The notes below the pieces were generated by a model. The model made no database searches. It was not told where the DNA came from and was given only the letters and a program-made list of their open reading frames with translations. From positions 212,729-276,728 of the forward strand of contig CALCLY010000022.1 of NCBI GenBank assembly GCA_937966555.1: a stretch of 64,000 bases of DNA. The letters run 5' to 3'. Position numbers and translations under genes: made by a program. Shown in pieces: positions 12,794 through 57,750 of this stretch; the first letter of the stretch is position 1, and every line of letters starts with the position of its first letter. The stretch comes from an uncultured Clostridia bacterium (lineage in GTDB: Bacteria > Bacillota > Clostridia > UMGS1883 > UMGS1540).

Positions 12794-12794
12794 T

Positions 12795-16536: not shown

Positions 16537-16551
16537 TAATTCGGTGATTGT

Positions 16552-17364: not shown

Positions 17365-17407
17365 TGATTAAAAATATTATAAATTTAATTGAAATCCGGA
17401 GAAAATT

Positions 17408-35715: not shown

Positions 35716-36591
35716 TTAAAGCTCCCCTATTTCACGCATAATCTTTTCTATCTCAGCCGCGCCCTCCGAAGAACATTTTCCAAAATAATCGGGCGCAAAG
35801 TTTCCTTCCATCCCGAGCAAGTTCATAGAAACGGTAAATCCCTGCATAACTCCGTGTTTTGCATATGTATCACGAAGCAGCAATATATTATTCAGGTATT
35901 TAGCGCATTTGTCCATATCTCCGCTCTGTGCGCTTTTTATAAATTTTTCCGCATTTTTCGGCGTTGATGAGAACATACCGTCCAGAACTTTGTCAAGTCC
36001 GAAAGAAAGCGCTGCGTCAAAGCAGTCTATATTGCTGTAGAGCACTTCAAACTCCGGGATATTTTGTTTTATAAGCCTTCCGAGTGCCATATCTCCGCTT
36101 TTTATGCCTTTAATATTTTCGTGTTTTGCAAGGCGCTTTACCATATCAAATGTGATTTTGCATTTCGTAACGCCGGGCAAATCATATAAAAATATGGGCT
36201 TGTCGGACTTATCGGCTATCATTTCAAAAAAATTGCAGTGCACAGCTTCGCAATTTGCAAAATAAAACGGCGTTGTAACAACCGCTGCCGTAAAAGGACA
36301 ATCTTTAACGCGCTCAATTCTTTCAATAACCCTCTGAGCCGAGTTATCCATTGCCCCGACAAAAAGCGGTACTCTGCCGCCCACTGCCGCACTTGCCACA
36401 TAAACCGCCTCAGCATATGCGTTGTCCGGCACGGAAGCCTCCATTCCCATGCTGCCCATTAAAAGCAGTCCGCTTGCCCCGGCATCTATCTGCATATTTA
36501 TTTCTTTTTCAAGCGATTCCTTGTCGATGCTTCCGTCTTTTAAAAGAGGCGTTCCGAGGGCTGTGTAAAATCCTTTTTTAAGTTTTTCCAT
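35716..36591 (-). CDS. DapA/NanA-family class I aldolase, probable N-acetylneuraminate lyase or a 2-keto-3-deoxy-sugar-acid aldolase.
   Basis: YTALGTP N-terminus, GSMGMEA (GxxGE box) and Schiff-base lysine context NIKGIKSGD; 291 aa; AAGGAGAG RBS. Confidence 0.75.
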   Translation of the reverse strand: MEKLKKGFYTALGTPLLKDGSIDKESLEKEINMQIDAGASGLLLMGSMGMEASVPDNAYAEAVYVASAAVGGRVPLFVGAMDNSAQRVIERIERVKDCPFTAAVVTTPFYFANCEAVHCNFFEMIADKSDKPIFLYDLPGVTKCKITFDMVKRLAKHENIKGIKSGDMALGRLIKQNIPEFEVLYSNIDCFDAALSFGLDKVLDGMFSSTPKNAEKFIKSAQSGDMDKCAKYLNNILLLRDTYAKHGVMQGFTVSMNLLGMEGNFAPDYFGKCSSEGAAEIEKIMREIGEL

Positions 36592-36690
36592 TAATTATCT
36601 CTCCTTATTTTTAATCACTGAAGCCATTATATACTCGTTTATTAATAAAGTCAATGAACTAAAAAGACAACTTTTCAGAAAGATGTCCGT

Positions 36691-38445: not shown

Positions 38446-38447
38446 TA

Positions 38448-41180: not shown

Positions 41181-41205
41181 GTTTTTTCTCCCTTCGGAAT
41201 GTCCG

Positions 41206-43845
41206 TTATTTGTATACAACAATAACACCGTTTGTTGTATATGAAGTATAAAGAATTATCTTGGAACCTTTTCCTGCCGTTTTATAATCAATTAAATCAG
41301 ACACTTTACCGTTTTTCACTTTATTGTTTCTTTCTGAAGAATCATAAACTATAACCGCAAATCTGTCTGCCGGATAACTTTCGAGCTTATCATAGCCCAA
41401 AACCGTACCGCTTCCGGGAATAGATCCTTTATATACAAGCATATTGCCGCCGTAAATCGAATAAATTTCGTTTAAGCTTATTCTGAGCTGGCTGTTCGGC
41501 GCCTCGGTATTATAGAAAGTATCGGGATATTTAAAGTTATCTCCGGCGCGGTCATATATAAGCTCTACTGTTGTTATCTTCCCGAAATCGTTTGCGGCAA
41601 ATCTTATAACATCACCTTCGGCAAGAGTATGTACTTTTCCCGAGCCGTCAAGCTCAAGAATATTTTGTAAAACTCCGCTGTCTTTTACCACCGCGCTGCT
41701 TGCTCCGCTTTTATCCGTGTAATAAATTTTTTCCTGCAAAGAACCGTCACTGCCCACAATTTTTGCCGTATCCGTTACCACGGCAATACTGTTTGTGATA
41801 GGAATCTGTTCTGCAGTTTCCGAAGACTGCAGCACAACAGCCTCTGCCATATGAGATTCTTCATTAGACTTATACGCCTCAATTGAATATTTGTCATTCG
41901 GCACAAGGAAAGATGTGTTCGATGTAATATAGTATTCATCGTCTGAATTATCTTCTTCGGGCACGCGGAAAATAACAGTTTTTCCGCTCGTTGCAATTTT
42001 TGAGCCGAAAATTCCTGTGGTTCTTCTCCACTCAAGCTTTTCCTCCGATTTCGGAACACCCGAAGAATCCACAAAGCTTGAAAACATGCGTTTTAAAGTA
42101 TTGGCATTTTCGTTTTTTCCTTTTGAAGGAGTATCAATATCAGTCAGTCTGCCCGCCGAATCGGTAAGGTATTTTATTACGCAGCTTTCAAGTTTTCCTC
42201 CTGCCGTCAAATAAGAATATGCGTCATTTTTGCTTAAGTATTCTCCGTCAACAAAAAGTTTGTCGGCAGATTCAAAAACCTTTATTTTGTTATCTGCCGT
42301 AAGGACTTTGTACTCGCATACACCGCTGATTCCTTTTTTCAGCTTAGCATTTATAAGATATCCGAGACCCAAGTCGGCTGATGATATATCTCTGTTCACG
42401 GTTGCAATCTTATTAAGAGTTGTTAAGCCGAAAACCGCCGTATCTCCTATTTTAAGTTCTTCGTTTTCTGCAAAAGCATGTGTAGTGCGGTATCTGACAC
42501 CGCCTATCGTAACATACATATTCCGTCCGCTTTTTTCAATCGCTTCTACACTTCCGCGTGCCTCTCTGTTTGAGAAAACGGCTTTAATAATTTCTCCGTT
42601 CTCACTTCTTCTCACGGAAACCACGTCGTATCTTACAAGCTCGCTTATAAACATAACGTTGCCGTATTCGTCCGTAAAGCTTACGTTTCCCTCACCGTTA
42701 TCCTTAAGGCATACGGATTTTTGGCTTTCGTAAATGTCATATATGGTTTTGCTTGAAGCGTCCGCTATCTTTACGGCAAAATCCTCCGTTATATTCATAA
42801 ATATAACATCGGCTTTTCCATCGGAATTATTATCCGTCAGGCTTATCTCGCCTTGCCTATTTTCAAAAAGAGCGGAATTTACTTTTGAAACCTTAACATC
42901 GTTAAAAAGGATCACAGCGTCCGACGCAATTTTTTCCGTAACCTCTTTTCCGTTTTCGTCATATTTGAGTTCTGTTACGGAAAAAGCGTAAACATCCTCC
43001 GCGTCAATTTTTACGCTTGTGTTCCCGACAGAACAAATTGCCAAAACCTCTACGGAATCCGCATCGTAATAAAAAAGTGTATTCATTCCCACAAAATCCG
43101 AAATATCTTCTATATCTGTGTTGTATTTAATTCCGTTTATCAAAACCGTTCCTTCATCATACGCAACATTGTCATACAAAGATTTGTTTTTAACACCGTT
43201 TACAATTCCTTCGCCGCTTTCGATATCATGTGAAAGCTTTAATATCGTTTCGCCTTCTTTTATCTCATACTCTATTGTTTTTCCGATGGTTTTCGGAACC
43301 ATTACATCTGCTCCTATAGAATTAAAAAGCATTGTCTGCATGTCGCGGAACACAAGATTTGCATTCCCGAACATATTTATTCCGCGAAGAACCTTCTGCT
43401 CATCGGCAAGTACAATATATCCGCTCGGATAGCCGCCTTTGTATTCGGCATAATCACCGTAGCCAAGCATACACATAACCATTTTGCAAGCTTCGTTATA
43501 TGTTATATAATCGTCAGGTCTCGCCGCTCCGCCGTAAATAAGTCCGCGTTTCTGTGCATTGGCCATAATGCCGTATTTGTCATGAAAACCGTTTATGTCC
43601 GAAAACTCAACATCCTTTTCCTCACAAACTGTTGATGCATTCATTATTTTAAGAAGAGCCTCGGTAAAATCCGCTCTTTTCACAGGTTCTGCCGCGTCCG
43701 TATATTCACCGACAGAAAAACCAAGCTGTGTCAAAACGCGCTTTTTACCTTCAAAATCCGTGTTTTTGGAAGCAGCAAGTCCCGTAACGGCACTCATGTT
43801 CAAAACAGCCGCACAAAAAACCACAGACAGTATTTTTTTAATCAT
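41206..43845 (-). CDS. Secreted cell-surface protein with an SLH-like N-terminal module and an 879-aa body of unknown function; paralog of the 1..2037 product.
   Basis: Signal peptide MIKKILSVVFCAAVLNMSAVTGLAA and RBS GGAGGTGA. The N-terminal 150 aa are homologous to the 1..2037 protein. ATGA overlap with the upstream gene. Confidence 0.65.
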   Translation of the reverse strand: MIKKILSVVFCAAVLNMSAVTGLAASKNTDFEGKKRVLTQLGFSVGEYTDAAEPVKRADFTEALLKIMNASTVCEEKDVEFSDINGFHDKYGIMANAQKRGLIYGGAARPDDYITYNEACKMVMCMLGYGDYAEYKGGYPSGYIVLADEQKVLRGINMFGNANLVFRDMQTMLFNSIGADVMVPKTIGKTIEYEIKEGETILKLSHDIESGEGIVNGVKNKSLYDNVAYDEGTVLINGIKYNTDIEDISDFVGMNTLFYYDADSVEVLAICSVGNTSVKIDAEDVYAFSVTELKYDENGKEVTEKIASDAVILFNDVKVSKVNSALFENRQGEISLTDNNSDGKADVIFMNITEDFAVKIADASSKTIYDIYESQKSVCLKDNGEGNVSFTDEYGNVMFISELVRYDVVSVRRSENGEIIKAVFSNREARGSVEAIEKSGRNMYVTIGGVRYRTTHAFAENEELKIGDTAVFGLTTLNKIATVNRDISSADLGLGYLINAKLKKGISGVCEYKVLTADNKIKVFESADKLFVDGEYLSKNDAYSYLTAGGKLESCVIKYLTDSAGRLTDIDTPSKGKNENANTLKRMFSSFVDSSGVPKSEEKLEWRRTTGIFGSKIATSGKTVIFRVPEEDNSDDEYYITSNTSFLVPNDKYSIEAYKSNEESHMAEAVVLQSSETAEQIPITNSIAVVTDTAKIVGSDGSLQEKIYYTDKSGASSAVVKDSGVLQNILELDGSGKVHTLAEGDVIRFAANDFGKITTVELIYDRAGDNFKYPDTFYNTEAPNSQLRISLNEIYSIYGGNMLVYKGSIPGSGTVLGYDKLESYPADRFAVIVYDSSERNNKVKNGKVSDLIDYKTAGKGSKIILYTSYTTNGVIVVYK

Positions 43846-46800
43846 TTTCCGTCACCTCCGATTTTTAATGCTTCGTAAATCATTTTTGCCGCTTCGGCAC
43901 GGGTTGCAAATTTCACAGGTTCAAAATTACCGTTTCCCGTTCCGCTTAAAACTTTTGCCGAATACAAAGCCGAAACAGCTTCTTTTGCATAATCCGATAT
44001 TTTTTCAAAATCCGAAAAATCCGCTGTTTTCTCAGACGCTTTAAGCTGTGCGGCTCTGAAAATTATCACCGCCATATCCTGTCTTGTGACATTGTCTCCT
44101 ATACCGAAAATCTTTGCATTCCTTCCCAAAACAATTCCGTTTTTAAAAGCGGAAGAAACATAACCGTAATACCATGCTTTTTTATTTACATCATCAAAAC
44201 TGCTTTCGGCTTTCTCATCATAATCCGAAAAAGCAAGCAAAGCAAGCTTTGTAAACTCTTCACGCGTTATTTTATCGCCGGGTGCAAATGTTTTGCCGCT
44301 GCGTCCCTTTATAATGTCTTTTTCACATAAAGCATATATGGCTTCACGCGCCCAGTCAAACCCGTCAAGATCGGTAAATTCAGTATTAGTTTTCGATGTA
44401 TCGTTTCCGTTTTTACCCGCAAGCTCTATTTTTGTTGTATTCCCTCCGCCGCTGCCCGAAGATGATGAATTTCCGGAGGAAGTGCCGCTTTCCGCTTTCT
44501 TTTGTTTTTTCACAAGAGCGGAAAATTCATCGTAAAAATCCGAAACAGTTTCAAACATTTTTCCGGAAAGGCTTGAATTTACCGGGACTTTGTTTTTCAG
44601 CTTTTCATAATCTGCCAGATCGAATTTTAAAAATACATTATTATCTTTTATGATCGCTGTAATATTCGTCTGATTTTTTGTTCCTTCAACAGCTCTTAAA
44701 ACCGTTCTTTCGTTAAATAATTTCTGCAGCTCTTCATCTTTTAATTTTTTTGCTATATCGGCATACACATTTTCTTTAACTTTTTCGTTTTGTTCAGCAA
44801 ATGTTTTATACGCCTCAAAATTTTTACAGCCTATTTGATCCGCGTATTTTTCAAATAACTCTTTTATATCCGAGCCGTCTTTTGCAAATTCAAGTTTCGT
44901 ATATGCGCATGCTTTCAAAAATACGGTGTTAAACTCTTCAATGGATTTAAACTTTTCATCTTCAAGTTTTGCACGGCTTGAAACCACATATTCTGTCAGA
45001 AACTTATATTCGTCATCATTCATTAAATTAATCTCGGAAATATCTCCCGCAAAAACGTCTTTGTATTCTTCAGCCGCTGTCTTTATATTAAGTTCGGCAG
45101 CGTTAACACATTCAAGGGCGCTTTTTATTCTCTTGGGAGAAACGTATGAAAAACAATCTGCCTTAAATGTGCTTTTTCCGTCTTTCACAATAAGCATTCC
45201 GTACTTTCCGCCTGTTTCGCCGGGGTAAAACGCAAAAACATCTTTTTCTGCTTTGTCAAACTGTTTGATAAAAACAATATTTTCCGCAAGAGACGCGCCG
45301 TCTTTTATATCCTCGGCTGTTTTTCCGGGTTTCAGTATCAAAGCCGTAGTAGTGCCGCCCGTAATACCTGCACCACTCACCGTAACGATACCTGTATCCA
45401 TATCTTCGTGAAAACTTTCCGTTCTCTTTTCCGTATCCTTCAAAGGTTCTGTTCCGAAAAAAGCTCGGTTTTTCATCGGGTTCATTTCCGGTATACTGTC
45501 CCAAATATAAGACTCACAATAATTACCCTCGGATATCGGAGCTGAAACAGAATATTCAGTCATGCTCCCGTCAAGTACATTTTCCTCTGCCATCAAAAAC
45601 AGAAGTTCGTTTGTTTCGCCGTCAAAAACAGCAAGTGCAATTGTAAATTTTTCCTCGCTGCCGTCATAAACCGCGCCGCTTACGGATGCTTTAACTTTTG
45701 AATCTTCGGACGAAATCGAAATATCGCTGAGGTCATATCTGTTTTTTACAATAACGTTAAACTTTCCGTCATATGTATTTCCCAAAACATCGCGAACACC
45801 GCTGACATTTACCGCATATGTTTTTCCGTATTCAAAATCAGACAGTGAAAGCGCGACTTGTTTCTCATCCGTCAAAACGGCGTTAATTTCTTTTCCGTCG
45901 GACTTATAAGTTCCGCACTCTGCTATTGGGTTCGAGAACGAAACGCAAACTTCACCCGGAACTATTGCAAAAATCTCCGGATCCGGTGTTAACCCGGAGA
46001 TATAAAGTCCTTCGTTTTGGTTTATGCCAAAGGTTTTTACAATTGTTTCTCCTTCGCCGCTGCCTTCGGTATAAATTCCGGCATTTTTCATCGGAATACA
46101 CGATGCCGGCAGCGAAGCTTCCGCAAGCACCGTTTCCCCGTTTAAAACGGAAACGGTTTTTTTCACAGTGTCAGTCTCCGCCTTCAGAGCAAGAATTTCG
46201 CCGTCTTTATAGCTGCCCTTTTCCTCTCCCAAAATATAAATTTTTTCGTCTTTAAGTTCAATTGTTTTTTCACCGTTTAATGCAAAGAAGCTTTCGCTGC
46301 CTTTGGGCAAGACAGAAAAATCAAACCTGTATTTTCCGTAAAAATCATGCGGATATGAATATGTAAATCCGCTTTTCTGCGGCAAATCACCCGGGAGAAC
46401 AATTCCGTTTTCGTTAATATCTGCCGCTCCGTCAACCTTCAGTTCTTCGGGCATTGAATCCAAGCCCTCAAAACCGTAATTTGCACAAGCGTCGGGGTAA
46501 TGAGGAGCAGTTACATTCACAGCCATATCATCATAAATAGTATGCGATGTGTCTTTTCTTCCCGAATAACCGAAAAGCAGTATGTTTATATCACGCAGAT
46601 TCGCCGCTCTCTGAAGATAATATCCGCTGTCCGAAAACTCTCCATCCACGGAAGATATGCTCCATGTATAATAAGCCGTCTCAATATTGTACTTTATCTC
46701 TATATCATACCATATGCCCGTTCTTGTTTTAAAGTCCTGAACTCTTTTTTCAAACATTTGCAAAGATCCGTTTGGCTCAAAATATCCCGCCATATACGCT

Positions 46801-47174
46801 GACGAAGATGCGCTTGAACGAAGAAGAATGGTTCTTCCGCTGTTAAAATCCTCAAGCTGCATCGAAAGATTTATCTTTATTGAATCCGTAACAGGTTTTT
46901 TAAAGTTATATCTCAGCGAAAGATAAGCTTGAGTTTTGTTTATAAGTTCAAGGCTTATTCCTCTGTCCGTCTTAGCCGCACGCGCACCGTCGGTTCCGCT
47001 TTTTCCGTAATTAAAAGTGAAACTGCCCAAAGTATTGCCGGCAGGTAAAACCGCAAGTGTATCGTCATCGCCTTTAAAGTCTTCAAACCTCATTGCGGGC
47101 TGAGTGTCGGCAAAAGCGCCCAGAGGTGATGCGAGCATAAACCCCGCACATACAAGAGAAATAATTTTTTTCAT
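43842..47174 (-). CDS. Large secreted surface protein: N-terminal LamG/ConA-like jelly-roll domain, a central domain of unknown function and three C-terminal S-layer homology (SLH) domains.
   Basis: Signal peptide MKKIISLVCAGFMLASPLGAFA and AAGGAGG RBS. The C-terminus carries three canonical SLH repeats (FTDLDGFDWAREAIYALCEKDIIKGR..., FDDVNKKAWYYGYVSSAFKNGIVLG..., FSDFEKISDYAKEAVSALYSAKVLSG...). The N-terminus contains WYDIEIKYN...SISSVDGE. Confidence 0.75.
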   Translation of the reverse strand: MKKIISLVCAGFMLASPLGAFADTQPAMRFEDFKGDDDTLAVLPAGNTLGSFTFNYGKSGTDGARAAKTDRGISLELINKTQAYLSLRYNFKKPVTDSIKINLSMQLEDFNSGRTILLRSSASSSAYMAGYFEPNGSLQMFEKRVQDFKTRTGIWYDIEIKYNIETAYYTWSISSVDGEFSDSGYYLQRAANLRDINILLFGYSGRKDTSHTIYDDMAVNVTAPHYPDACANYGFEGLDSMPEELKVDGAADINENGIVLPGDLPQKSGFTYSYPHDFYGKYRFDFSVLPKGSESFFALNGEKTIELKDEKIYILGEEKGSYKDGEILALKAETDTVKKTVSVLNGETVLAEASLPASCIPMKNAGIYTEGSGEGETIVKTFGINQNEGLYISGLTPDPEIFAIVPGEVCVSFSNPIAECGTYKSDGKEINAVLTDEKQVALSLSDFEYGKTYAVNVSGVRDVLGNTYDGKFNVIVKNRYDLSDISISSEDSKVKASVSGAVYDGSEEKFTIALAVFDGETNELLFLMAEENVLDGSMTEYSVSAPISEGNYCESYIWDSIPEMNPMKNRAFFGTEPLKDTEKRTESFHEDMDTGIVTVSGAGITGGTTTALILKPGKTAEDIKDGASLAENIVFIKQFDKAEKDVFAFYPGETGGKYGMLIVKDGKSTFKADCFSYVSPKRIKSALECVNAAELNIKTAAEEYKDVFAGDISEINLMNDDEYKFLTEYVVSSRAKLEDEKFKSIEEFNTVFLKACAYTKLEFAKDGSDIKELFEKYADQIGCKNFEAYKTFAEQNEKVKENVYADIAKKLKDEELQKLFNERTVLRAVEGTKNQTNITAIIKDNNVFLKFDLADYEKLKNKVPVNSSLSGKMFETVSDFYDEFSALVKKQKKAESGTSSGNSSSSGSGGGNTTKIELAGKNGNDTSKTNTEFTDLDGFDWAREAIYALCEKDIIKGRSGKTFAPGDKITREEFTKLALLAFSDYDEKAESSFDDVNKKAWYYGYVSSAFKNGIVLGRNAKIFGIGDNVTRQDMAVIIFRAAQLKASEKTADFSDFEKISDYAKEAVSALYSAKVLSGTGNGNFEPVKFATRAEAAKMIYEALKIGGDGK

Positions 47175-47184
47175 GATTGCCTCC

Positions 47185-48597
47185 TTACTTTTCGATATGC
47201 GTTACTACTTTTATTTTTCCGCTTTTCAAGACTTCGGTTTTTTCAAAACCACCTTCCTTTTCACTATAAAAATCAATAAAAGATGTTGTTCCCTTCATCT
47301 TATTAAATTCCTCCTCACTAACTTCTTTCAGAGATATATTATTAAGAAGCATTTTTGCTGTATCTCCGTAAAACGCTTCATAATTTTCAAGTTTAAATTT
47401 TACACTTTCAAGTTTTTCAAAGGGTTTATCCTTAATATGTACCCGAGTAAATTCCTCTCCGCCGCATGAAACCGAAAGAGTATGCTCTCCGCTCTTTGTA
47501 TCGGCAAAAATTTTCAGGTTATAAATCAAATCTGTTCTCGGAGTAAATCCCGTGCTTGCACCGCCGAAAACCAAAGTTCCGCTTAATGCTTTAAACTCCA
47601 GTATTTTTTCATCGTTTAAATATACGCATTTATCACTGTTCAAATCCGGGAATCCTATATCCGTCTCAAACAAAATGAAGTTTTCCGCACTCACGGAAAA
47701 TTTTTTACAAACCTCTGTTCCTGAGTTAAAATTTTCACAAACAGAAAGCATTTTTCCGTTTAAATTGCGTTCCGTAAACATTCCCGAAAATTTATGTTCA
47801 GCGTCATAAAATCCGTATATACCGGAACCCGTAAATCCCTCCGGTGGCAAAGTGCCGTCTTTTGATTCATAATAGTTTTCAAAACTTACCGTTTCATTTT
47901 CTTTATAAAGTGCAGGCGTGTGTTCAATCAGCACATCGTCTATATAAGTTTTACAAACATCGCTTGAAATCTTTCCGGACTCTTCGAACAAAACTTGTTC
48001 AACACTATCAAGCCCTTCAAACGGAGCAAAGCCTGTAAAGTCAAATTCCGTACTGCGCCATGTTATACATATTTTTGCAAAACATGATGTCACATCATAC
48101 TTTATGTCAACGTCATACCACTCATTTGGGACGCCGTAAAGCGTATTGAAACCGTTTTTGAGTTTTTGTCCCATAACCGTTATAAGGTTGCTGTCTTCCC
48201 ACTTTATAATATTATAGGGAACGCTGGAGCCTTTCTTTCTGAACCGGAAAAAGTGAATAGTTTCACCGTCCCCGCCGGTTATTTTAAAAGAATATTTTAC
48301 ATGAATGCCCTCTGCAGCGCAGTTTCCCGAGCCGAAAACATATCTCACGCCCGGATATTGATCCTTTTCATGAACCAGAACAAGACTTGTTCCCTTTCCC
48401 GTCTTTTCCGCCGTCACCCCGTCATTGGTACAATTGTTAAGACTCCATGCACCGTATGAACCTTTTTCGGGAAGCGATTTAAGAGATGAGCCGGGGGAAT
48501 AGCTTTCAAAATCAAAGCTGTCCCCCACACTCCCCTGAGCGGAAACCAAACTACATAAAAGCGTTAATGCCAAAACCGCGCCGATACACTTTTTCAA
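47185..48597 (-). CDS. Secreted protein with two tandem LamG/ConA-like jelly-roll domains; paralog of the neighbouring genes; TTG start.
   Basis: Starts at TTG 48597 (MKKCIGAVLALTLLCSLVSAQG signal peptide, AAAGGAG RBS 10 nt upstream, no in-frame ATG). Carries the domain motif NEWYDVDIKYDV. Confidence 0.6.
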   Translation of the reverse strand: MKKCIGAVLALTLLCSLVSAQGSVGDSFDFESYSPGSSLKSLPEKGSYGAWSLNNCTNDGVTAEKTGKGTSLVLVHEKDQYPGVRYVFGSGNCAAEGIHVKYSFKITGGDGETIHFFRFRKKGSSVPYNIIKWEDSNLITVMGQKLKNGFNTLYGVPNEWYDVDIKYDVTSCFAKICITWRSTEFDFTGFAPFEGLDSVEQVLFEESGKISSDVCKTYIDDVLIEHTPALYKENETVSFENYYESKDGTLPPEGFTGSGIYGFYDAEHKFSGMFTERNLNGKMLSVCENFNSGTEVCKKFSVSAENFILFETDIGFPDLNSDKCVYLNDEKILEFKALSGTLVFGGASTGFTPRTDLIYNLKIFADTKSGEHTLSVSCGGEEFTRVHIKDKPFEKLESVKFKLENYEAFYGDTAKMLLNNISLKEVSEEEFNKMKGTTSFIDFYSEKEGGFEKTEVLKSGKIKVVTHIEK

Positions 48598-48635
48598 TTT
48601 CCGCTCACTCCTTTCATTTTCCTCTTTTTTGCAAG

Positions 48636-51407
48636 TTATTTAACTTCCGCAGCGTAAGCCGTGTATTCACTCGGCGTCATAAACATTGCTCCCTGTGCCT
48701 TGAGCCAAAGCACAAATTCTTTGAATCTTGCCTCAGCGCCGTCGTAATCCTTCCAGCCGTAGGGATGCGACTGAAGCATAACATATTCGCTTCCGTTTGT
48801 CTTTGCCGTTTCCCAGCTTGCCTTAAGATCTTCAACCGCGCGCGTGCAGCCTGTGCCGCCCTCTTCCATTTTCAGAGATTTGTAAAGCGGCGTGAAGTTA
48901 TGCTTACCCTCAAGATACGAGGGCAGCGAGTTTGCTATGAGCATAACTGTTTTAATTTTTTTAAATTCATTGTCAAGAAGCTGCACTGTTGCCTCGTCCA
49001 TGTCATTTGACGGAGGGTTAAAGGCTTTAATGTCAATCCCGTATCTGTCCGAGGTTTCAAAAACCGCCGTAAACTCCGCTCTCTGCGTTTCCGTGGTTGT
49101 CGTTACGGGGTCTTTTGTATCAAGAAGCGTATCTCCGTTTACAACCGTTCCGTTTTTGAATTTTCCGCTTCTCCAGTCATAGCCGTGAGACCAGACCTCA
49201 ATGCGCGGATTGTCGTTTATCGCTTTTATTCTCGCCTTTTCTCCGGGGGTTGCGTTGTTTTCTCCGAGAGTATATCCCATAAGACCGAAGCTTGCTTTGA
49301 GCTCGTTTTCCACCACCCAGTCTTTTACGCTCTCAAATACCGGCAGTCTTGAGCTGTAGCCGAAATCATCAAGCTTTAAAAGTACAATCGGCAAATCCGT
49401 TGTAGGCTTAAGAATTGCCGCAGCACCGAATGGTGCAAGCGTTACGGAATCCCATCTAAGCGATTTTACAACATATGTTTTGCCGTCATCGGGAACCGTC
49501 AGTGAAAGCTCGGACGTGCTCTCACCATTGTTCGCCGAAATCGTCTCCGTTCTCACCTGAGAAAGTCTTCCGTCGCAATACAGCGCAAGAGTATGCATTA
49601 CATTAAGCGTAACTCCGTTGTGCGCCTCGGCTTTAAATGACGCCGTAACCTCACCGGGTGTCAGAAGTGTCAGTATATTGCCGTCTCTGAGGAAGGAAAC
49701 ATTTCCCAGAAGCGTATCCTGCATATGCGTGTCAAACTCGATGTAATCTGTAAGCGTGAGCCCGTTTTCGTCGGTAATTCCATCAAAGCTTACATGGTAA
49801 TGCTTTCCGCTTTGTTTTTCAAAGTTTACCTTTAAAGTATAATCGTCCACCCTTTCGACGGAGTCTATCGTTCCCTTGCCGAAGTTTAACGCAAGCTTTC
49901 CCTTGAGCGCTTCGGGCGTTTCCGCGGCCGCAAGCTTATTGTTGAATTTAATTATTACATCGTCGTCTTTTTTTACGTTTATTTCGGGGCCGGTTGTAGA
50001 TTCGGCGTAATTTACCTTAAACGACTCCGCGTTTTCACGCGCGGGCTCAATAATTTTCAAATTGTCTATCCAGTAATGGCAGCGTTCCAAAGCCTTGGGG
50101 TTATTGGTCATTCTGAACATAAGGCGTCTTACGTTTGAGACAATCGTTTTATCGTGTGTATACGTATCGTGCGCTATAAGACTTCCGGTGTCATCCCAAA
50201 CCCAGTATTCCTCGGTTTTTGTCTCGGAAACATAGATTATGCGGACGTCATACCACTTATTAATCTCATAGGGATATGACTTTCCTCCAACGTCTATTGT
50301 GCCATTCGTTGAAAACTGCATAGCGGTCAGCTGCGGCGCGCTCGTCACCTCATCGGTCTTTACAAGCGACAGATAAATTACTCTGCTGTTTCCGTTAAGC
50401 TCCGGGACTTTCACAGAAAAGCGCGCGTCCATAGCCGGTATCGGAGTTTTCATATCAGCCCCCAATGTCGGATATGTCTGTTTTTCCGCCATTATCTTTG
50501 CACTTGTGCCCTTGCCTGCCGTGTTATCGGATACGACGCCGTCCGTCCCTTGCTGCTGATAATTGAGTGAATAGTTGAAAATCGTATTTCCGGGATTTCT
50601 CGGCAGGGTTGACGGCTCGTCTGAAACATAATCTTCAAAATCATCGGCTATTCCGCGCTTTGGACTGTAGCTGAACGAGGTCTCCGCCTTTACATTGTCC
50701 CAATAGCAATAAGAATCCTCTGTAAGATTCTTACAGTTTATACTGTTAAAAAACTCAATTTTGTTTATATACTCAAACTGTACCGAGTTTTTGGCCTCTC
50801 CGGTTTGGTTAAGCACAAGCTCGCCGTCACAGGTAATTATAACTCTGTATATTTTTTCGTTCATGTTGTACCACATTTTGACGTCGTACCACTTGTTTAA
50901 TTCGTATCTTTTGCCGCCCGTGTCGTTGCCGAACAGCTCGATTGTATTGCTCTTTGTAAAATACAGCGAGGATATCGGGGTGGAGCCCTTGTCACCGTAA
51001 AGCCTTAAAACACGCGGTATTGCGTTTTCCGCATAAAAAGAGCCTTCAAAATAAAACGTGTCATAAAGCTTTTCGTTAAACCAATATGTTACGCCGCCGT
51101 ATACGCCGCTGTCGTCAACATGACCCTGGTAAATTTTAAGAGCCTTGCCGTATTTGCTGCCCGCAGGACCCGCGGCGTAAGCGCCGTTGCCGGCGTTCTG
51201 CGCTTCTCTCTGGGTCATGTAGCCGTTGGGCGTTTCGTGAATATGCTGTCCCCAGCCGTTATAGGTGTCGGGGTCGTCTTTGTTGTAAGTTGTCGTAAAC
51301 GTCTCAAAATCCGTCCCGTCGGAAAAGTCCTGATGTGCAGCCGCCGGCAGAGCCGAAAGGCTCAAAAGCATACACACCGCCAGGAAAATGCCGGTTAGTT
51401 TTTTCAT
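48636..51407 (-). CDS. Secreted multidomain protein: two LamG/ConA-like domains, an Ig-like middle region and a C-terminal domain resembling a polysaccharide deacetylase/esterase (NodB-like, low confidence).
   Basis: Probable start ATG 51407 (MKKLTGIFLAVCMLLSLSALPAAA, AAGGAG RBS); the track begins at GTG 51416. Motifs KWYDVKMWYN...IITCDGE and KWYDVRIIYV...WVWDDTGS. The C-terminus has LKLDDFG...WSHGYDW...SHPYGW. Confidence 0.6.
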   Translation of the reverse strand: MKKLTGIFLAVCMLLSLSALPAAAHQDFSDGTDFETFTTTYNKDDPDTYNGWGQHIHETPNGYMTQREAQNAGNGAYAAGPAGSKYGKALKIYQGHVDDSGVYGGVTYWFNEKLYDTFYFEGSFYAENAIPRVLRLYGDKGSTPISSLYFTKSNTIELFGNDTGGKRYELNKWYDVKMWYNMNEKIYRVIITCDGELVLNQTGEAKNSVQFEYINKIEFFNSINCKNLTEDSYCYWDNVKAETSFSYSPKRGIADDFEDYVSDEPSTLPRNPGNTIFNYSLNYQQQGTDGVVSDNTAGKGTSAKIMAEKQTYPTLGADMKTPIPAMDARFSVKVPELNGNSRVIYLSLVKTDEVTSAPQLTAMQFSTNGTIDVGGKSYPYEINKWYDVRIIYVSETKTEEYWVWDDTGSLIAHDTYTHDKTIVSNVRRLMFRMTNNPKALERCHYWIDNLKIIEPARENAESFKVNYAESTTGPEINVKKDDDVIIKFNNKLAAAETPEALKGKLALNFGKGTIDSVERVDDYTLKVNFEKQSGKHYHVSFDGITDENGLTLTDYIEFDTHMQDTLLGNVSFLRDGNILTLLTPGEVTASFKAEAHNGVTLNVMHTLALYCDGRLSQVRTETISANNGESTSELSLTVPDDGKTYVVKSLRWDSVTLAPFGAAAILKPTTDLPIVLLKLDDFGYSSRLPVFESVKDWVVENELKASFGLMGYTLGENNATPGEKARIKAINDNPRIEVWSHGYDWRSGKFKNGTVVNGDTLLDTKDPVTTTTETQRAEFTAVFETSDRYGIDIKAFNPPSNDMDEATVQLLDNEFKKIKTVMLIANSLPSYLEGKHNFTPLYKSLKMEEGGTGCTRAVEDLKASWETAKTNGSEYVMLQSHPYGWKDYDGAEARFKEFVLWLKAQGAMFMTPSEYTAYAAEVK

Positions 51408-51412: not shown

Positions 51413-53824
51413 TCACTCCTTATACTCTAAAAATTTTTTTAATTTCGGTTCATTGCCTTCTTTTGTCCAAATCATTACAACAAGCTTATATCTTTGCGCG
51501 TCACCGGGAACCTCAACCACGCCTTCCTCCGTTCCGGCAACGCTTAAATCAAGTGTTTTTGTTTTTACGCTCACTATTCTTTCGGTTTCCCTGTCTATAA
51601 GCGCCGTGTAAATTACTCCTTCTGTATTTCTCTCCTTTTTGCGGTACCGCAGGGCATATACCGATGAAGCTCCGTTTTTTGTTACGGTCACCTCGACCGT
51701 ACCCGGAAACACTTCGGGCTTTGTGATTTTTATGCTTCCTTCGCCCGACGCGCTCACGCTGTGATATGAATCGGCTTCGATTTCATAAATATGCCTGTCC
51801 GGCGAAAAACCATCAAGCGCCAAGCCGTTTAATTTGATTTGCGAAAGCTTCGGTTTTTCGGTGAAATCCGCGTTTTGTGAAACGCTCCACTCCGACAGAG
51901 GAACATAAACGGGCGCCGCCAACTCATGTAGGTATCTTTCCGGTGTAAACGCAACACATATTTCCGTGTCCTTTACGTTTTCGAGATGCATTGCAAGCTT
52001 TCTGTAGCCGGTATTGGGGTTCTGCCCTTCGCAGACGGGCGATGAAGGCAGCGGTGCGGCGTCCATGACTTCAAACGTGCCGCCGCGCACAATTTCGGCT
52101 TTCAGCCTGTTGTCTCCCATACTCAGAAGCGCGCTTTTCCCGTCCTCCGATATCAGCGCCTGCGCCTCGGTGTGCATAAACCAATAAATTTCATTTTCCT
52201 CCGTGCTTTTTATTTCATCTGTGACCACCACTCTCCTTCTGCCGTCCGTAAGCATTATTCCGCGCTTTGCACTTTGTACGTAATCCTCATACGCACAGGT
52301 TGTATCGGTTATCGCAAACGCCTCGGAATATCCCGATTCGAACCTGTCTATATACGCATGAGCGTTCTCTGCCTGATCATACATTCTGCCGTCGGGATTA
52401 AATACCAGAACGTTGTGTCCCTCCGCTCTGTTTCTGTATTTGTTGAAAAACTTTCCCGGAAGGTTATAGTTTTCGTACCCGAGATCGGCGGCAAACCTGT
52501 CTCCCATAGAGTCTATGACAAATTCGCCTATGTCAAGATGGCCGTGAGCCGCCTTGTTGTTTCCCGCATGAAGTCCGCAAAAAAGCATTTCGTCCGTATT
52601 CCATGAGCTTCTCATTGTGACGGCGTCGGCGTTGTCATACTTTGCGTCCCGCCGCATAAACGCCTCGCCGCCGTTCGGATTTCCTTTGAAATAGAACAGC
52701 TCGCGGTAATTGGGCTCAATATTTTCTTTTTCCATCATATTATATCTGAAGCTTTTCAGATACGGCTGCGAAAACCTTTCCGCAAACCAGAAAAACTCTT
52801 TTGTATCTATTTTTTTCAGGGGCGATTGTCCCGCGTCGGAAAAATTGAACGTGTAAACCCCCGTCATTTCAACCGGATACAGCCCTGCCTTTGAGAAGCC
52901 CTCTATATCGGAAAGACCGTAATCCGTCCCCGCTGCCGTATTAAGGCTTTCAATACACTCAACAGCGGTTTCTGTGGCAAGCTGCCAATAGGCAACACCC
53001 TCATACCACGCCCCGTCGGGTCCGTATTCCTTAACGCCGCGCGCAAAGCTTCTTATTCCTTCGCAAAGCACCCTGTTTGTGTATCCGCTCTCGTCCTCAT
53101 CACATATGGCAAGCGATGCCATAATCGCTCCGCTGCCGCATTCAAGAGTCCAGTTGTCCGCTTTTCCGAACGCCCACGTATAAACGCGCGATTTACCGTC
53201 GTTTCCGACAGCCACGCCGTCATATACATCGCACGTCGGCTTTAAGCCCTTATCGCAGAGCGCCTCGCGCATACTCCTTCTCTGCACGGGAGTAAGATAA
53301 TCGTAAAGCCAGTCATAGCCCAAAGCCATGCCGTTCATAAACTGCCCCGTGTCAAGAAAATGATAAGGATTCCAGCTGCTCCACGATAAAAGCGCTTCAA
53401 TCTCTCTCCATGCTCTGTCGGCAAATGAGGTTTCTCCCGTTATTTTATAAATAAGTGCGTTTTGCGAAACGATTTTTGCAAACTGCCCCGACTGCACTCT
53501 CATTCTTATGCCGTCTGTCGTTCCGTACACAATAGGCTCTCTTTTTGAATATCGTATCGTATCCGCTTTTATTTCTCTGAACCAGTTTCCCTTAATGCCG
53601 CCCGCATCTATTTCGTCACGCAATGCCTCAAAGCCATCCGCGTCTGCAAAAAGCCTCGGATGACCGTTAGCCGGGTGAAGCCGCTTCACATCCGATACAA
53701 CCTGACCGCAGGCAAGCGAATCATATTGCCCCGTATCGGAGGCGCGCGCTGCCGTGCTTATCATAAGCGCAAGCGGCAATATTAAGCTTAAAATTTTTCT
53801 CCGCAACGCGGACACCTCCGTCAC
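51413..53824 (-). CDS. Secreted heparinase II/III-like polysaccharide lyase (N-terminal alginate-lyase-like alpha/alpha toroid plus Hepar_II_III beta-sandwich).
   Basis: HGHLDIGEFVIDSMGDRFAADLGYENYNLPGKFFNKYRNRAEGHNVL is the heparinase II/III signature. WYEGVAYWQLATE sits in the toroid domain. GTG start overlaps the upstream stop (GTGA). Signal-like N-terminus RRKILSLILPLALMISTAARA. Confidence 0.75.
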   Translation of the reverse strand: MTEVSALRRKILSLILPLALMISTAARASDTGQYDSLACGQVVSDVKRLHPANGHPRLFADADGFEALRDEIDAGGIKGNWFREIKADTIRYSKREPIVYGTTDGIRMRVQSGQFAKIVSQNALIYKITGETSFADRAWREIEALLSWSSWNPYHFLDTGQFMNGMALGYDWLYDYLTPVQRRSMREALCDKGLKPTCDVYDGVAVGNDGKSRVYTWAFGKADNWTLECGSGAIMASLAICDEDESGYTNRVLCEGIRSFARGVKEYGPDGAWYEGVAYWQLATETAVECIESLNTAAGTDYGLSDIEGFSKAGLYPVEMTGVYTFNFSDAGQSPLKKIDTKEFFWFAERFSQPYLKSFRYNMMEKENIEPNYRELFYFKGNPNGGEAFMRRDAKYDNADAVTMRSSWNTDEMLFCGLHAGNNKAAHGHLDIGEFVIDSMGDRFAADLGYENYNLPGKFFNKYRNRAEGHNVLVFNPDGRMYDQAENAHAYIDRFESGYSEAFAITDTTCAYEDYVQSAKRGIMLTDGRRRVVVTDEIKSTEENEIYWFMHTEAQALISEDGKSALLSMGDNRLKAEIVRGGTFEVMDAAPLPSSPVCEGQNPNTGYRKLAMHLENVKDTEICVAFTPERYLHELAAPVYVPLSEWSVSQNADFTEKPKLSQIKLNGLALDGFSPDRHIYEIEADSYHSVSASGEGSIKITKPEVFPGTVEVTVTKNGASSVYALRYRKKERNTEGVIYTALIDRETERIVSVKTKTLDLSVAGTEEGVVEVPGDAQRYKLVVMIWTKEGNEPKLKKFLEYKE

Positions 53825-56800
53825 TCTGACGTGTAAGCCTTAAACTCGGTCAGGCTGAACCACCCTGTCTTTTGAATCGTGTCGCTTCCGTTGAGCTGAA
53901 GCCCCGTGCCCGTAATGCGCACGTATCTTGTCTTTGCTCCGCCGATATAGAAGTTTTCAAGCTCTGCGGATTCGCCGCCGCTTACTCCTTCAAATACCTT
54001 TGTCCAGCTGCTGCCGTCATTTGACGTTTCAACGCAGAAATGACATTTTCTCACCGCACCGCCGTAAAAAGCAAGGCTTACGTACTGCAGATCTTTTTCC
54101 TCGCCGAAATCAAATGTAATATCGGCAGGCATCTCACATGAATAGCGTGTATCAAAGTCATTGTCAAGTGTATTGGAAGGAATATTTGCAGCCTGAGGAA
54201 CTCTCGATGCACTTACTTCTTTAACGTCAATTTCTACAAAGCCTTTATCGGCAAGCGATTCGGGAGGTACATTGAATTTTATGCCGTAAACGTTTGTGTA
54301 GTATTCGTTTTTAACCTTTATTTCTATAACACCGGGCCACTGTTCGGGATAATTTACCGTAACCTCGCCGCTTCCTTCAGCTTCAACTTTCGGCATAGGT
54401 GAATCAGCTTTCTTTAATGCGTATGAATAGAAACTCTTATTTTCATCAAAACCTTTAAGCTCATCACCGTCAATTTTTATGTTGTAAAGCTTGGGAAGCT
54501 CTCCGATTTTTACCTTCGAAGGATCGTCAAGCGTCCATTCCGCCAGAGGCTTGACCTCGGGATATTTTATTCCGCCCTCCATTTCATATACAAGAGGTGT
54601 AAAGCATACGCAAATATCCAGATCCTTAGTGCTTTCAAAATGAATTGCAAGTTTTCTGTAGTCTTTATTCTCATTCTGACCCACAACCTGCGGAGAAGTC
54701 TCGAGCGGCACTGCCGGCATAACCGTGAATCTGCCTTCTTTTGAAAGAAGCTTTGCTTCCATTTTATTTCCGTTTATGTTAAGTATCGCCGTTTTACCGT
54801 CTTCGGACAAGGTAACGTCTGCCTTGGTATTCATAAACCAATAGATCTCGTTTTCATTATCGCTTCTTACTTCGTCCTGAACTATTACGGACGTTCTGCC
54901 GTTTGTCATTTTAATTCCGCGTTTTGCACTGTTTACATAATCTTTGTATGCGCACGTCATATCGGTTATCGCAAAAGCGCTGACATCATTGCTCTCAAAT
55001 CTTTCAAAAGTTGCATAAGCATCAAAATTCTGATCATAAAGCCTGTCATCGGGATTCATAAGCAGCGTATTATGCCCTTCCGCCCTGTTCCTGTATTTAT
55101 TGAAGAAAGTGCCCGGAAGGTTATAATCTTCATACCCCAAATCGGCAGCAAATCTGTCTCCGAACGAATCTATAACAAACTGACCTATATCAAGATGTCC
55201 GTGATTTGCGGCATTGTCTCCGGCGTGCATTGCGGCAAAAAGCATGCTGTCGGTATTCCAGTTATTTCTCATTGAAACGGTTTCGGCAATTCTGTAATAA
55301 AAATCGCGTTTCATATCCGTTTCTCCGGCAACAGGTTCGCCCTTGCAATAGAAAAATTCTCTGAAATCGGGTTCTATGTTATCTCTTACCATGCGTTCAT
55401 AACGCAGGTTGGCAAGAGCTCTGTCTCCGAGCTTATCGGAAAAATAGAAAAGTTCTTTTGTATCAAGCTGAGCGCTTGTAAGCTCGCCGGCATCGGAGAA
55501 GTTAAATGTATATACGCCCATCATGGCATAAGGATAGTATCCTGTTTCGGCAACGCCGGGAGAGTTTAAGAATCCATAAGTTTTACCCGTTGATGCTTCA
55601 AGTGACGTAAGCGCCTCAACCAAGGTCTCTGTTGAAAGCTGCCAATATGAAACGCCTTCATACCACGGTCCGTCAGGCGCATAGGCAAGTGCACCCATTT
55701 CCATACTCTTCATGGCATTTGTCATAACGTCAAGCGATACATCCCGTTCCTCATCGCAAATTGCAAGAGAAGCCATCATAGCGCCGCTGCCGCACTCAAG
55801 CGTCCAGTTGTCGGGCGTTTTCCATGCCCACTCATAATCCTTAACGCCTACGCCTCTGTATATGTCAAGTATCGGTGTAAGACCGTTTTCAACAACCTCC
55901 TCACGCAGCTTTTCTCTCTGCTCGGCGGTCAGCCAGTCGTAAAGCCAGTCATAGCCTATCGCAAAGCCGTTCATCATTTGACCTGTATCAAGAAAATGTG
56001 TCGGGTTCCAATCCTTCCAGTCAAACGTAGCTTCCATTTCTGTCCAGGCGCGTTCGGCATAACGTGTTTCACCCGTAAGCTTATACATAAAGCTGCAAAG
56101 CCCGACTATGGTGGCAATCTGAGCGCCCTGCTGTCTCATTCTGATTCCATCCGTAACGCCGTATTTTACCGGGGTTTTCTTCATCTGCGCTTCGGTTTCC
56201 GCTTTAATCTTGTCATACCACTGCTTTTTGACGCCGCCTGCGGCAATTTCGTTCTTTATCCTTATAAAATCGTCCTCAGTGCCGTAAATTCTCGGATGGC
56301 CGTTACCGGGATGCTTTGCCTCAACGGCCGCAAGAATCTGCTCGCCCGTGGGTCTGTCAAAATTCATCAAACCTATTATTGATTTTAAAAGAGCCTCATC
56401 TTCTCCCCACGTGTAATTTACTTCCGTGTTTGAAAAAATTATAAGTCCCGTGCTGTCAGTAAACAGTTTTTTCTCAAAAGCCTTCGCTGCAAACGATGCC
56501 GGAACAAAAAGTCTGCCTCCTCGTATTTGCGGTGCATGTGAAATTTCTTCGGTTTTTCCGTTACACACAACACTTTTGTCTCCCGCGGACAATATGTACT
56601 CGCTTCCCGAGGCAATAAGGCTTGTTTTTGAGGTTTCCGAATTCCATGAAACGGTTCCTCCAAAGTTGTCTGATGTAAATCTCAGCGGTACAAAAAATTC
56701 ACCGTCTTTTTCAAAAGGGGAAACACTTTTATCGGAAGCGTCAATTTCTCCGACTTTTCCTTTTACTATAGCTCTCGGTGCTCCGGCAAAAAAACCGACT

Positions 56801-57564
56801 TTTGAGCCCATTACCATACTGACAATCTCATCACTTACCGAGTTTCCCGAAACGGATATATTCCAGTCGGTTTCGTTCATCTGCACGGGAGACAGCGGCT
56901 CGCTCCCCTCATAAACTTTCATATCGCTTATGTAAAATTCGGTTTTGCAGTTTTTCTGTATTCCCGTTACATGTATGCGAAACTGAGTCATGTCCGTAAG
57001 CATATTCTCCAACGAGATATCCGCGGCTCTCAGTTTGTAATTTACAAAAATCGAATATGTCTTCTTATCAAAATCCATAGCTATTGAAATTGTTGAAAAC
57101 TTTCCCTCCGGAAGCTGATAACCTATAGACGCAGTGTTTATATCAAGAATATTACCTTCAGTATCTATCCTGATAAGACCTTGTGATGTTCCGGCAGAAT
57201 CATACACATAGAAAATTTTGCTTGATCCTGCATTGAAATCCGGTCTTACGGTAGCTTGCCAGACAACTTTTCCGCTCATAGCATTGTCAAACTTTTTGTG
57301 CATTAAACAGTCGTTTGAAGTTTTAATCTGAAACAATACACTCTTGTCAGAAGCCCTCGGCACCTCAACAACACCCATAAAATTACCCTTGTCGTTATAA
57401 CTTGTTATGCTTGACGAGCCGGGCATGAATCCGTTGTCCACCGCATCAAATGTCTCGCCGTAATACCACTTGGGCTGTGATGCGGCAACAATGTTTTTAG
57501 GAAACACCGACAATGCCAGCGAGGCCGCCAATGCAACTGTGAAAAATCTTTTTATAAGTTTCAT
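53821..57564 (-). CDS. Large secreted heparinase II/III-like polysaccharide lyase carrying an N-terminal LamG-like domain, a copper-amine-oxidase-like stalk domain and a C-terminal F5/8 type C (discoidin) domain.
   Basis: Signal peptide MKLIKRFFTVALAASLALSVF. The lyase core is paralogous to 51413..53824 (HGHLDIGQFVIDSFGDRFAADLGYEDYNLPGTFFNKYRNRAEGHNTL). Stalk repeat FVPLRFTSDNFGGTVSWN. The C-terminal discoidin-like block reads DTRYSCE...YVRITGTG. Confidence 0.8.
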   Translation of the reverse strand: MKLIKRFFTVALAASLALSVFPKNIVAASQPKWYYGETFDAVDNGFMPGSSSITSYNDKGNFMGVVEVPRASDKSVLFQIKTSNDCLMHKKFDNAMSGKVVWQATVRPDFNAGSSKIFYVYDSAGTSQGLIRIDTEGNILDINTASIGYQLPEGKFSTISIAMDFDKKTYSIFVNYKLRAADISLENMLTDMTQFRIHVTGIQKNCKTEFYISDMKVYEGSEPLSPVQMNETDWNISVSGNSVSDEIVSMVMGSKVGFFAGAPRAIVKGKVGEIDASDKSVSPFEKDGEFFVPLRFTSDNFGGTVSWNSETSKTSLIASGSEYILSAGDKSVVCNGKTEEISHAPQIRGGRLFVPASFAAKAFEKKLFTDSTGLIIFSNTEVNYTWGEDEALLKSIIGLMNFDRPTGEQILAAVEAKHPGNGHPRIYGTEDDFIRIKNEIAAGGVKKQWYDKIKAETEAQMKKTPVKYGVTDGIRMRQQGAQIATIVGLCSFMYKLTGETRYAERAWTEMEATFDWKDWNPTHFLDTGQMMNGFAIGYDWLYDWLTAEQREKLREEVVENGLTPILDIYRGVGVKDYEWAWKTPDNWTLECGSGAMMASLAICDEERDVSLDVMTNAMKSMEMGALAYAPDGPWYEGVSYWQLSTETLVEALTSLEASTGKTYGFLNSPGVAETGYYPYAMMGVYTFNFSDAGELTSAQLDTKELFYFSDKLGDRALANLRYERMVRDNIEPDFREFFYCKGEPVAGETDMKRDFYYRIAETVSMRNNWNTDSMLFAAMHAGDNAANHGHLDIGQFVIDSFGDRFAADLGYEDYNLPGTFFNKYRNRAEGHNTLLMNPDDRLYDQNFDAYATFERFESNDVSAFAITDMTCAYKDYVNSAKRGIKMTNGRTSVIVQDEVRSDNENEIYWFMNTKADVTLSEDGKTAILNINGNKMEAKLLSKEGRFTVMPAVPLETSPQVVGQNENKDYRKLAIHFESTKDLDICVCFTPLVYEMEGGIKYPEVKPLAEWTLDDPSKVKIGELPKLYNIKIDGDELKGFDENKSFYSYALKKADSPMPKVEAEGSGEVTVNYPEQWPGVIEIKVKNEYYTNVYGIKFNVPPESLADKGFVEIDVKEVSASRVPQAANIPSNTLDNDFDTRYSCEMPADITFDFGEEKDLQYVSLAFYGGAVRKCHFCVETSNDGSSWTKVFEGVSGGESAELENFYIGGAKTRYVRITGTGLQLNGSDTIQKTGWFSLTEFKAYTSE

Positions 57565-57642: not shown

Positions 57643-57671
57643 ATTTTACAATACTTTTTTTGAAAAATCAA
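57643..57671 (-). promoter_or_regulatory. Candidate sigma-A promoter of the lyase/SLH operon.
   Basis: On the minus strand: TTGATT, 17-nt spacer, TAAAAT, about 75 nt upstream of ATG 57564. Confidence 0.35.
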
Positions 57672-57678
57672 TGAGCTG

Positions 57679-57708
57679 AAGTGACTAAAAAAATTTTTTA
57701 TGTCACTT
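57679..57708. promoter_or_regulatory. 30-bp AT-rich palindrome AAGTGAC-N16-GTCACTT directly upstream of the candidate -35 box; activator-type operator candidate.
   Basis: Perfect 7-bp arms AAGTGAC/GTCACTT flank TAAAAAAATTTTTTAT, which is itself nearly symmetric. Confidence 0.35.
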
Positions 57709-57750
57709 TTGCTCACAAAAATCCATATACCTTATCTAAAATCTTGTTAT

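Follow-up and report, generated by a model that had tools for sequence, protein, structure and literature searches.

Eight copies of one module of about 200 residues, spread over five secreted proteins, are encoded in a stretch of DNA from an uncultured Clostridia bacterium (NCBI GenBank assembly GCA_937966555.1, contig CALCLY010000022.1, positions 212,729 to 276,728). The whole stretch of 64,000 nucleotides is referred to here as the window, and its positions are counted from its first letter. The five proteins are labelled A, B, C, E and F (Table 1), with two copies each in A, B and C and one each in E and F. Structure prediction gives the module a ConA/LamG-like jelly-roll fold, and we favour, with moderate confidence, its being a non-catalytic glycan-binding module, of the lectin or carbohydrate-binding module (CBM) type, that would keep a surface polysaccharide-degrading system on its substrate. 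An original prediction, made from the sequence of the window without database searches, had described A, B and C as an array of paralogous secreted proteins that share a LamG/ConA-like domain with two further proteins of the window. That interpretation is supported, with the corrections that there are eight copies and not five or six, that the paralogy is ancient and that the module of E lacks the motif by which the domain had been recognised.

The array lies at positions 43842-51407. Its coordinates were given correctly in the original prediction, its three genes stand back to back and a typical Sec signal sequence opens each of their products; the lengths of A, B and C are identical in the own gene calls of the 335-kb contig Ga0245297_1000012 from JGI metagenome 3300029857, to which the window belongs. 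The N-terminal module that A, B and C share is far beyond chance. When the five proteins were compared by BLASTP, the N-termini of A and B matched at E = 1e-14, and A and C matched at 6e-10 over the second copy and at 2e-4 over the first. Neither E nor F was linked to A, B or C, and the sole match between E and F was the Cu_amine_oxidN1 domain common to both; pairwise alignment, which had been proposed as the check, thus joins the array proteins but not the other two, for which a profile was needed. A profile of the four obvious copies missed E and matched F only marginally (E = 2.5e-4, C-terminal 75 residues), so that a deeper one was required. A foreign profile was built from 89 homologous domains of other organisms, without window sequences, and run against the 477 six-frame open reading frames of the window. 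It matched A (1e-43), B (5e-40 and 3e-16), C (3e-37 and 3e-31), F over the full profile length (residues 538-732, 1e-12) and E (residues ~49-222, 9e-10); the next-best reading frame stood at E = 0.45. Single sequences aligned to the family by hhalign gave 95.4 % for the E module and 96.2 % for the F module. In all five proteins the alignment is long and colinear, spanning ~190 profile positions, and pairwise identity among the window copies is 9-24 %.

The module stands directly behind the signal peptide, usually as a tandem pair, and is C-terminal in F. One or two copies had been expected in each array protein; the copies are real, but each of A, B and C carries two. For example, B had been credited with the single motif WYDVDIKY, which indeed marks its first copy, whereas a second copy without WYD was found at residues 235-433. 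The second copy of A (region 229-440) went undetected in a plain hidden Markov model (HMM) search; aligned together with three orthologous segments, the same region matched the family profile in hhalign at 97.3 % (E = 2.6e-11, 144 columns), and a jackhmmer search seeded with it converges on the module family.

Conservation over 332 domain instances, with positions in A numbering, yields the family signature F...G...G...W-Y-[DNH]-[VI]...[YLI]-x-D-[ND]. Judged from these sequences, the WYD motif on which the original prediction had relied is a family hallmark (W155 conserved in 91 %, Y156 in 86 %). However, its third position holds D, N or H (D157 in ~50 %), the motif is missing in the E module and in the second copies of A and B, F has WYN instead, and the accompanying "D-G" turn is conserved in only about 40 %. 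The only WYD of E, at residue 449, was rejected as the module motif, as it lies inside the lyase domain and is a chance match. The most conserved residue, absent from the earlier list, is the Asp of the last strand (D215, 95 %); F30 (77 %), G72 (74 %) and G136 (68 %) are also prominent. The strongly conserved positions are thus core aromatics, glycines and one Asp, and the 332 instances hold no conserved set of His, Arg, Lys, Gln or Glu such as would be expected of a jelly-roll lyase or hydrolase. By analogy with the build of many jelly-roll CBMs, the conserved terminal Asp and an N-terminal D-F-E could possibly form a structural metal site.

An AlphaFold2 model of residues 25-232 of A, computed with a 44-sequence family alignment, has a mean predicted local distance difference test score (pLDDT) of 94 and a predicted template modelling score (pTM) of 0.90, and folds into an all-beta jelly roll of 13 strands. 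Full-length B (pLDDT 89, pTM 0.80) is modelled as two such sandwiches with a short tail. Foldseek returned 243 PDB matches at E <= 0.001 for the A copy, led by legume lectins (E 4e-8, probability 1.00, TM score ~0.5, identity 10-12 %), with BT_1020 (5MQR) at rank 17. The best matches of the B model were 4XUP at the top, tetanus and botulinum Hc, NTNHA, 5MQR, EngBF, SGBP-B (7KWB) and legume lectins, and nearly all Foldseek matches are glycan-binding jelly rolls. At the sequence level, the WY[DH]V strand of the family profile aligns to the LamG strand of neurexin LNS/LamG and of 4DQA. When all PDB sequences were searched, the four-sequence profile found nothing and the 44-sequence profile reached E = 0.0026 for 4DQA, its best match, over a 35-residue stretch and 0.037 for neurexin LNS; no family profile matched the sequence of a solved structure at E < 0.001. 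On the predicted models, then, the module is a ConA/LamG-like jelly roll, a two-sheet antiparallel beta-sandwich of ~12-14 strands, as the original prediction had anticipated.

No window copy was significant in Pfam, NCBIfam or PDB sequence searches. The faint Pfam matches were SO2946-like_C for the second copy of C (E 0.005) and Laminin_G_3 (PF13385) for the E copy (E 0.047; 14.3 bits, below the family threshold of 27.6 bits), and the copies other than that of E had no match to Laminin_G_3 at E <= 10. Similarly, no window copy matched Sialidase-like_CBM (PF22585; 156 positions, threshold 27 bits). Among 50 homologues, ten had partial PF22585 matches around the WYD strand, spanning ~76-137 of the 156 profile positions; of ten proteins scanned one by one, two passed the threshold. 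Nothing on PF22585 was found in a literature search. Relatives carry public names drawn from their other domains only, such as "S-layer homology domain-containing protein" and "DUF2334 domain-containing protein", both [Clostridia bacterium]. The module is therefore an unnamed family in the well-known ConA-like superfamily, known to date from uncultured gut Clostridia alone, useful for annotation and unsurprising in kind. New CBM family status is a reasonable proposal for it. As a CBM in the sense of CAZy would be, it is a discrete, confidently delimited domain within larger proteins, joined in E to a PL35-like lyase and in C to a DUF2334-like region, and in homologues to CE, PL and GH domains.

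The family is rare but not absent, because a word-indexed homologue search returned one match with four sequences and three with 44, whereas exhaustive HMMER searching with the four-copy profile, over 1.84 billion representative proteins, found 164 relatives at E <= 1e-3, 35 of them at E <= 1e-10. At such divergence (mean column identity 19 %), a family all but escapes a word index. The majority of the 164 carry 2-4 module stretches, and every relative with a named source organism comes from metagenome-assembled genomes (MAGs) of uncultured Clostridia. Protein B alone, as query in a search for related loci, found no relative, and an alignment of the B subfamily found five related loci. Among GTDB species-representative genomes, relatives were found in MAGs of uncultured Clostridia alone (RGIG1656 and RGIG1828 from goat caecum; SGB_2680), whose loci hold 4-6 consecutive module genes with two to four copies each. 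For example, locus L003 encodes in order a Heparinase II/III-like protein with a C-terminal module, a protein with two modules and DUF2334, two proteins with two modules each, and one with four modules and S-layer homology (SLH) repeats. Locus L007, from a closer relative, keeps the whole operon of the window: an E-like and a D-like protein, an 898-aa DUF2334 protein, a 926-aa protein, a B orthologue, a 1107-aa SLH protein, G, the FG-GAP protein and GH20. In L007 and L008 the B orthologue is 51 % identical and in synteny, and the order lyase, module with DUF2334, module-only, module with SLH is kept both there and in the goat-caecum MAG loci (37-42 % identity).

Each of A, B and C has its own subfamily among the homologues, with orthologues in the same gene order in other genomes. 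Recent tandem duplication was rejected, given the low identity among the copies (9-24 %) and the separate syntenic orthologues of each gene; from their sequences, A, B and C are old paralogues maintained as a set. The lineage-specific expansion that had been proposed holds in that the family is small, its named relatives are all uncultured Clostridia and a locus has several copies, but it is not the product of recent duplication. In goat-caecum Clostridia MAGs (L003 at 12094-18297, plus strand; also L002 and L004-L006), SLH proteins of ~2070 aa with two separate module pairs (residues ~40-425 and ~950-1310) look as if an A-like protein had been fused to a B/C-like one.

Lyase D matches GAGase II of family PL35 (PDB 8KHV) at E = 9e-52 over 600 residues (45-647) and a PL35 chondroitinase (9O3Q) at 2e-39. 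The catalytic triad of GAGase II consists of Asn192, Tyr246 and His401 (PMC12088678), to which the Asn (DNW), Tyr (AYW) and His (AHGH) of D align after a 22-residue numbering offset. E has the same three motifs and is a paralogue of D at 51 % identity; by similarity and alignment, both are PL35-like polysaccharide lyases with an intact catalytic triad. E also carries the Cu_amine_oxidN1 domain and, at its C-terminus, an F5/8 type C (CBM32-like) domain. We know of no characterised PL35 enzyme from Firmicutes. Protein A, the member predicted to be SLH-anchored, has the expected three repeats and no recognisable enzyme domain, and B is a module-only secreted protein with no other recognisable domain. 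The C-terminus of C, described earlier as esterase/deacetylase-like, scores 23.7 bits against DUF2334 (E 4e-5), below the Pfam cut-off of 26 on its own, but homologues that are 30-37 % identical to it in this region reach 1.9e-12, and two of them also pass Polysacc_deac_1 (2e-9). Across 50 homologues, the partner domains are Big_5 (10), DUF2334 (8), SLH (5), Hepar_II_III_C (3) and Polysacc_deac_1 (2), together with AXE1, GH141_M, Beta_helix, Sialidase and CBM_X2, a mostly carbohydrate-active or wall-anchoring set.

These associations suggest how the system might work. After Sec export, the SLH repeats would fix A to the cell wall with its modules facing outward. The copies carried by A, B, C and E would all recognise identical or related features of one uronic-acid/N-acetylhexosamine polysaccharide, glycosaminoglycan-like or from a microbial capsule, to which the PL35 similarity points as the operon substrate. 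The polymer would thereby be held at the cell surface, the lyases and the deacetylase-like protein would be brought onto it, and the products would then be processed by GH20 and the downstream enzymes.

Several observations weigh against this glycan-binding reading. The structural matches are moderate (TM about 0.5, identity 10-12 %), and the fold alone does not specify function; enzymes and protein-binding modules are found among ConA-like domains too. Isoelectric points (pI) of 4.5-5.4, with a family median of 4.68 (1 % above 7), make the modules acidic, which is unlike what direct electrostatic binding of polyanionic glycosaminoglycans would lead one to expect, although an acidic pI is common to every secreted protein examined. 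The WYD-less second copies of A and B may be structural only. The module is a predicted sugar binder, its binding and its ligand being deduced from fold and genomic context, and the substrate of the operon from PL35 similarity.

A passive role, as a structural spacer, stalk or folding unit that projects functional parts from the cell surface with no specific ligand recognition, would fit the acidic surface, the confinement of high conservation to core residues, the free degeneration of second copies, and the Big_5 Ig-like domains that often follow the module, with SLH anchors at the end. However, the module sits at the N-terminus, the far end from the SLH anchor, which is the place for a ligand-binding tip and not for a stalk. 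It is also found on the non-anchored B, C and E and at the C-terminus of F, and module-only proteins like B, with 51 % identical orthologues in synteny, are hard to explain as spacers; we regard this explanation as unlikely. Protein-protein assembly by homotypic or heterotypic sheet pairing, which would gather E, C and B on the SLH-anchored A independently of cohesin and dockerin, is in keeping with one anchored and several unanchored module carriers being co-encoded in conserved order and with the restriction of the module to one lineage. Legume lectins, the best structural matches, are moreover obligate oligomers. Yet nothing points to two complementary classes of module, lyase D of the same operon has none, and copies of 9-24 % identity are unlikely to have kept a common interface, all of which makes such assembly improbable. 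A more specific form, in which the module is not a sugar binder but a lineage-specific docking device that places E, C and B on the tandem copies of A in a multi-enzyme complex for acidic polysaccharides, strikes us as quite improbable.

The ConA-like fold also houses the enzyme families GH16, GH7, PL7 and PL13. The module could on this ground itself be an enzyme and represent a new family of jelly-roll glycoside hydrolases or polysaccharide lyases; a weak GH131_N match occurs in one homologue, and proteins like B have no other recognisable domain. A catalytic role was nevertheless rejected as the leading idea because there is no conserved polar residue set, the last-strand Asp being the single near-invariant polar residue. 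The top structural matches are lectins and CBMs, not enzymes, the copies diverge extremely from one another, and the module is fused to established catalytic domains, so that we hold catalysis by the module to be very improbable. Overall, glycan binding is the reading we prefer. A milder proposal than the docking device is that the module is the first of a new CBM family, specific for polysaccharides of the glycosaminoglycan-like or capsule type and associated in Firmicutes with PL35 lyases; it is put forward tentatively, as more likely than the docking device but, in our estimate, less likely than not.

With this module, ~200 residues of "dark" sequence that recur in 164 or more protein clusters of gut metagenomes are assigned to a family worth naming. 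An outline also emerges of a conserved locus that is the Gram-positive equivalent of the polysaccharide utilisation locus (PUL) and is centred on the recently defined PL35 lyases; besides lyases it comprises a deacetylase-like protein, proteins made of modules only and one module protein anchored to the wall. Should binding be shown, the module would become a candidate new CBM family and could help to trace what such loci degrade in Clostridia of herbivore and human guts. No general concept would be changed.

Table 1. Module proteins of the window, their domains and the genes of the same operon.
Feature	Length or residues	Coordinates	Strand	Basis
Gene A	1110 aa	43842-47174	minus	
A, module copy 1 (WYDIEIKY)	24-229	46488..47105	minus	profile E 1e-43 to 3e-50; AlphaFold2 pLDDT 94
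A, degenerate copy 2 (no WYD)	~230-400 (aligned core 256-395)	45975..46487	minus	hhalign, jackhmmer
A, three C-terminal SLH repeats (cell-wall anchor)		43845..44402	minus	Pfam SLH E 6.7e-34, 3 stretches
Gene B	470 aa	47185-48597	minus	
B, module copy 1 (WYDVDIKY)	24-234	47896..48528	minus	profile E 5e-40 to 1e-45; AlphaFold2
B, module copy 2 (no WYD)	235-433	47299..47895	minus	profile E 3e-16; second AlphaFold2 sandwich
Gene C	923 aa	48636-51407	minus	
C, module copy 1 (WYDVKMWY)	28-251	50655..51326	minus	profile E 3e-37 to 1e-42
C, module copy 2 (WYDVRIIY)	252-462	50022..50654	minus	profile E 3e-31 to 1e-38
C, C-terminal DUF2334 / polysaccharide-deacetylase-like region	~676-923	48639..49382	minus	Pfam DUF2334, sub-threshold
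PL35-like lyases D (51413-53824) and E (53821-57564)		51413..57564	minus	immediately upstream, same operon
E, N-terminal module (no WYD)	34-227	56884..57465	minus	profile E 9e-10 to 2e-9; hhalign 95.4 %
F, C-terminal module (WYNLKFVY)	538-732	2037..2621	minus	profile E 1e-12 to 8e-13; hhalign 96.2 %
FG-GAP protein gene		38448-41228	minus	Pfam
GH20 hexosaminidase gene		36691-38445	minus	Pfam
DHDPS-family lyase gene		35716-36591	minus	Pfam
Downstream operon part (G, FG-GAP, GH20, DHDPS-family lyase)		35716-43845	minus	Pfam; order kept in L007/L008 and metagenome gene calls

The genes E, D, C, B, A, G, FG-GAP, GH20 and DHDPS-family form a run on the minus strand. Around A, B and C, neighbouring genes are 10-38 bp apart or overlap by 4 bp. 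A DUF386 gene comes next after the DHDPS-family gene in the metagenome calls. Upstream of E, directly after a pyruvate kinase gene, lies a terminator-like hairpin (57796-57760, minus; 16-bp stem and T-run), and a promoter-like site (TTGATT-17-TAAAAT, 57671-57643, minus) is found ~80 bp before the E start; together (57643-57796) they probably mark the start of the operon. A promoter and terminator scan inside the array gave matches at chance level only. Four-base start/stop overlaps, typical of translational coupling, occur at the A/G (43842-43845) and E/D (53821-53824) junctions. The start of D is uncertain, being a GTG at 53824 in the window versus a position six codons downstream in the metagenome call (797 aa).

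Protein G (41206-43845, minus; 879 aa) has a signal peptide and no Pfam or NCBIfam match, yet it is retained in L007 and L008 with length and position unchanged. Weak similarity of the N-terminus of G to the SLH region of A (BLASTP E 0.005) suggests that it may be a second wall-anchored component. The F gene (2034-4232, minus) overlaps a GH3 gene (4225-5889) by 8 bp, near a gene for a LacI-family regulator. Between Cu_amine_oxidN1 and the module, the central ~400 residues of F (~140-535) match nothing in Pfam, NCBIfam or PDB sequences and may be an unrecognised catalytic domain. Elsewhere in the window, the product of a gene at 17408-19051 (plus) is a secreted protease of the papain family (Peptidase_C1) that also contains a Pfam "Lectin_like" domain (E 9e-22); this is a further lectin-type module attached to a secreted enzyme, but it is unrelated to the module family (four-copy profile E 0.17).

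Among known systems, legume lectins such as that of Pterocarpus angolensis (2GNB, 1Q8Q) are the closest to a single module in structure, with ~230 aligned columns. However, identity is 10-12 %, TM ~0.5 and the root-mean-square deviation 6-7 A, and the module may lack the metal- and sugar-binding loops of the lectins. PF22585, a beta-sandwich domain of BT_1020, and the ConA-like clan in general, with Laminin_G_3, share the ConA/LamG jelly roll, and 5MQR was matched by both models; the module differs in its signature, with the N-terminal D-F-E and the C-terminal Y-x-D-N, and in its N-terminal tandem arrangement. The tandem CBM22-1/CBM22-2 of Paenibacillus barcinonensis Xyn10C (4XUP), the best Foldseek match to full-length B (E 8e-8), likewise places two consecutive jelly rolls at the N-terminus of a secreted Firmicute polysaccharidase. 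The TM scores are nonetheless 0.33-0.43 at 9 % identity with no sequence relationship, and CBM22 binds xylan on GH10 whereas the window modules partner PL35-like lyases and DUF2334. CBM70, the hyaluronan-specific N-terminal binding module of the Streptococcus pneumoniae hyaluronate lyase (PMC4175358), is a comparable N-terminal beta-sandwich on a surface-presented Gram-positive glycosaminoglycan lyase; it is absent from the top 50 structural matches, and in the window anchoring is by SLH on a separate protein and binding is only predicted. The surface glycan-binding proteins of Bacteroidota PULs (SusE/F-like; SGBP-B, 7KWB) belong to another phylum and domain lineage and are anchored as lipoproteins rather than through SLH, and the Foldseek match of B to SGBP-B has a TM of ~0.2. 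Yet they too are enzyme-free tandem beta-sandwiches, co-encoded with the degrading enzymes.

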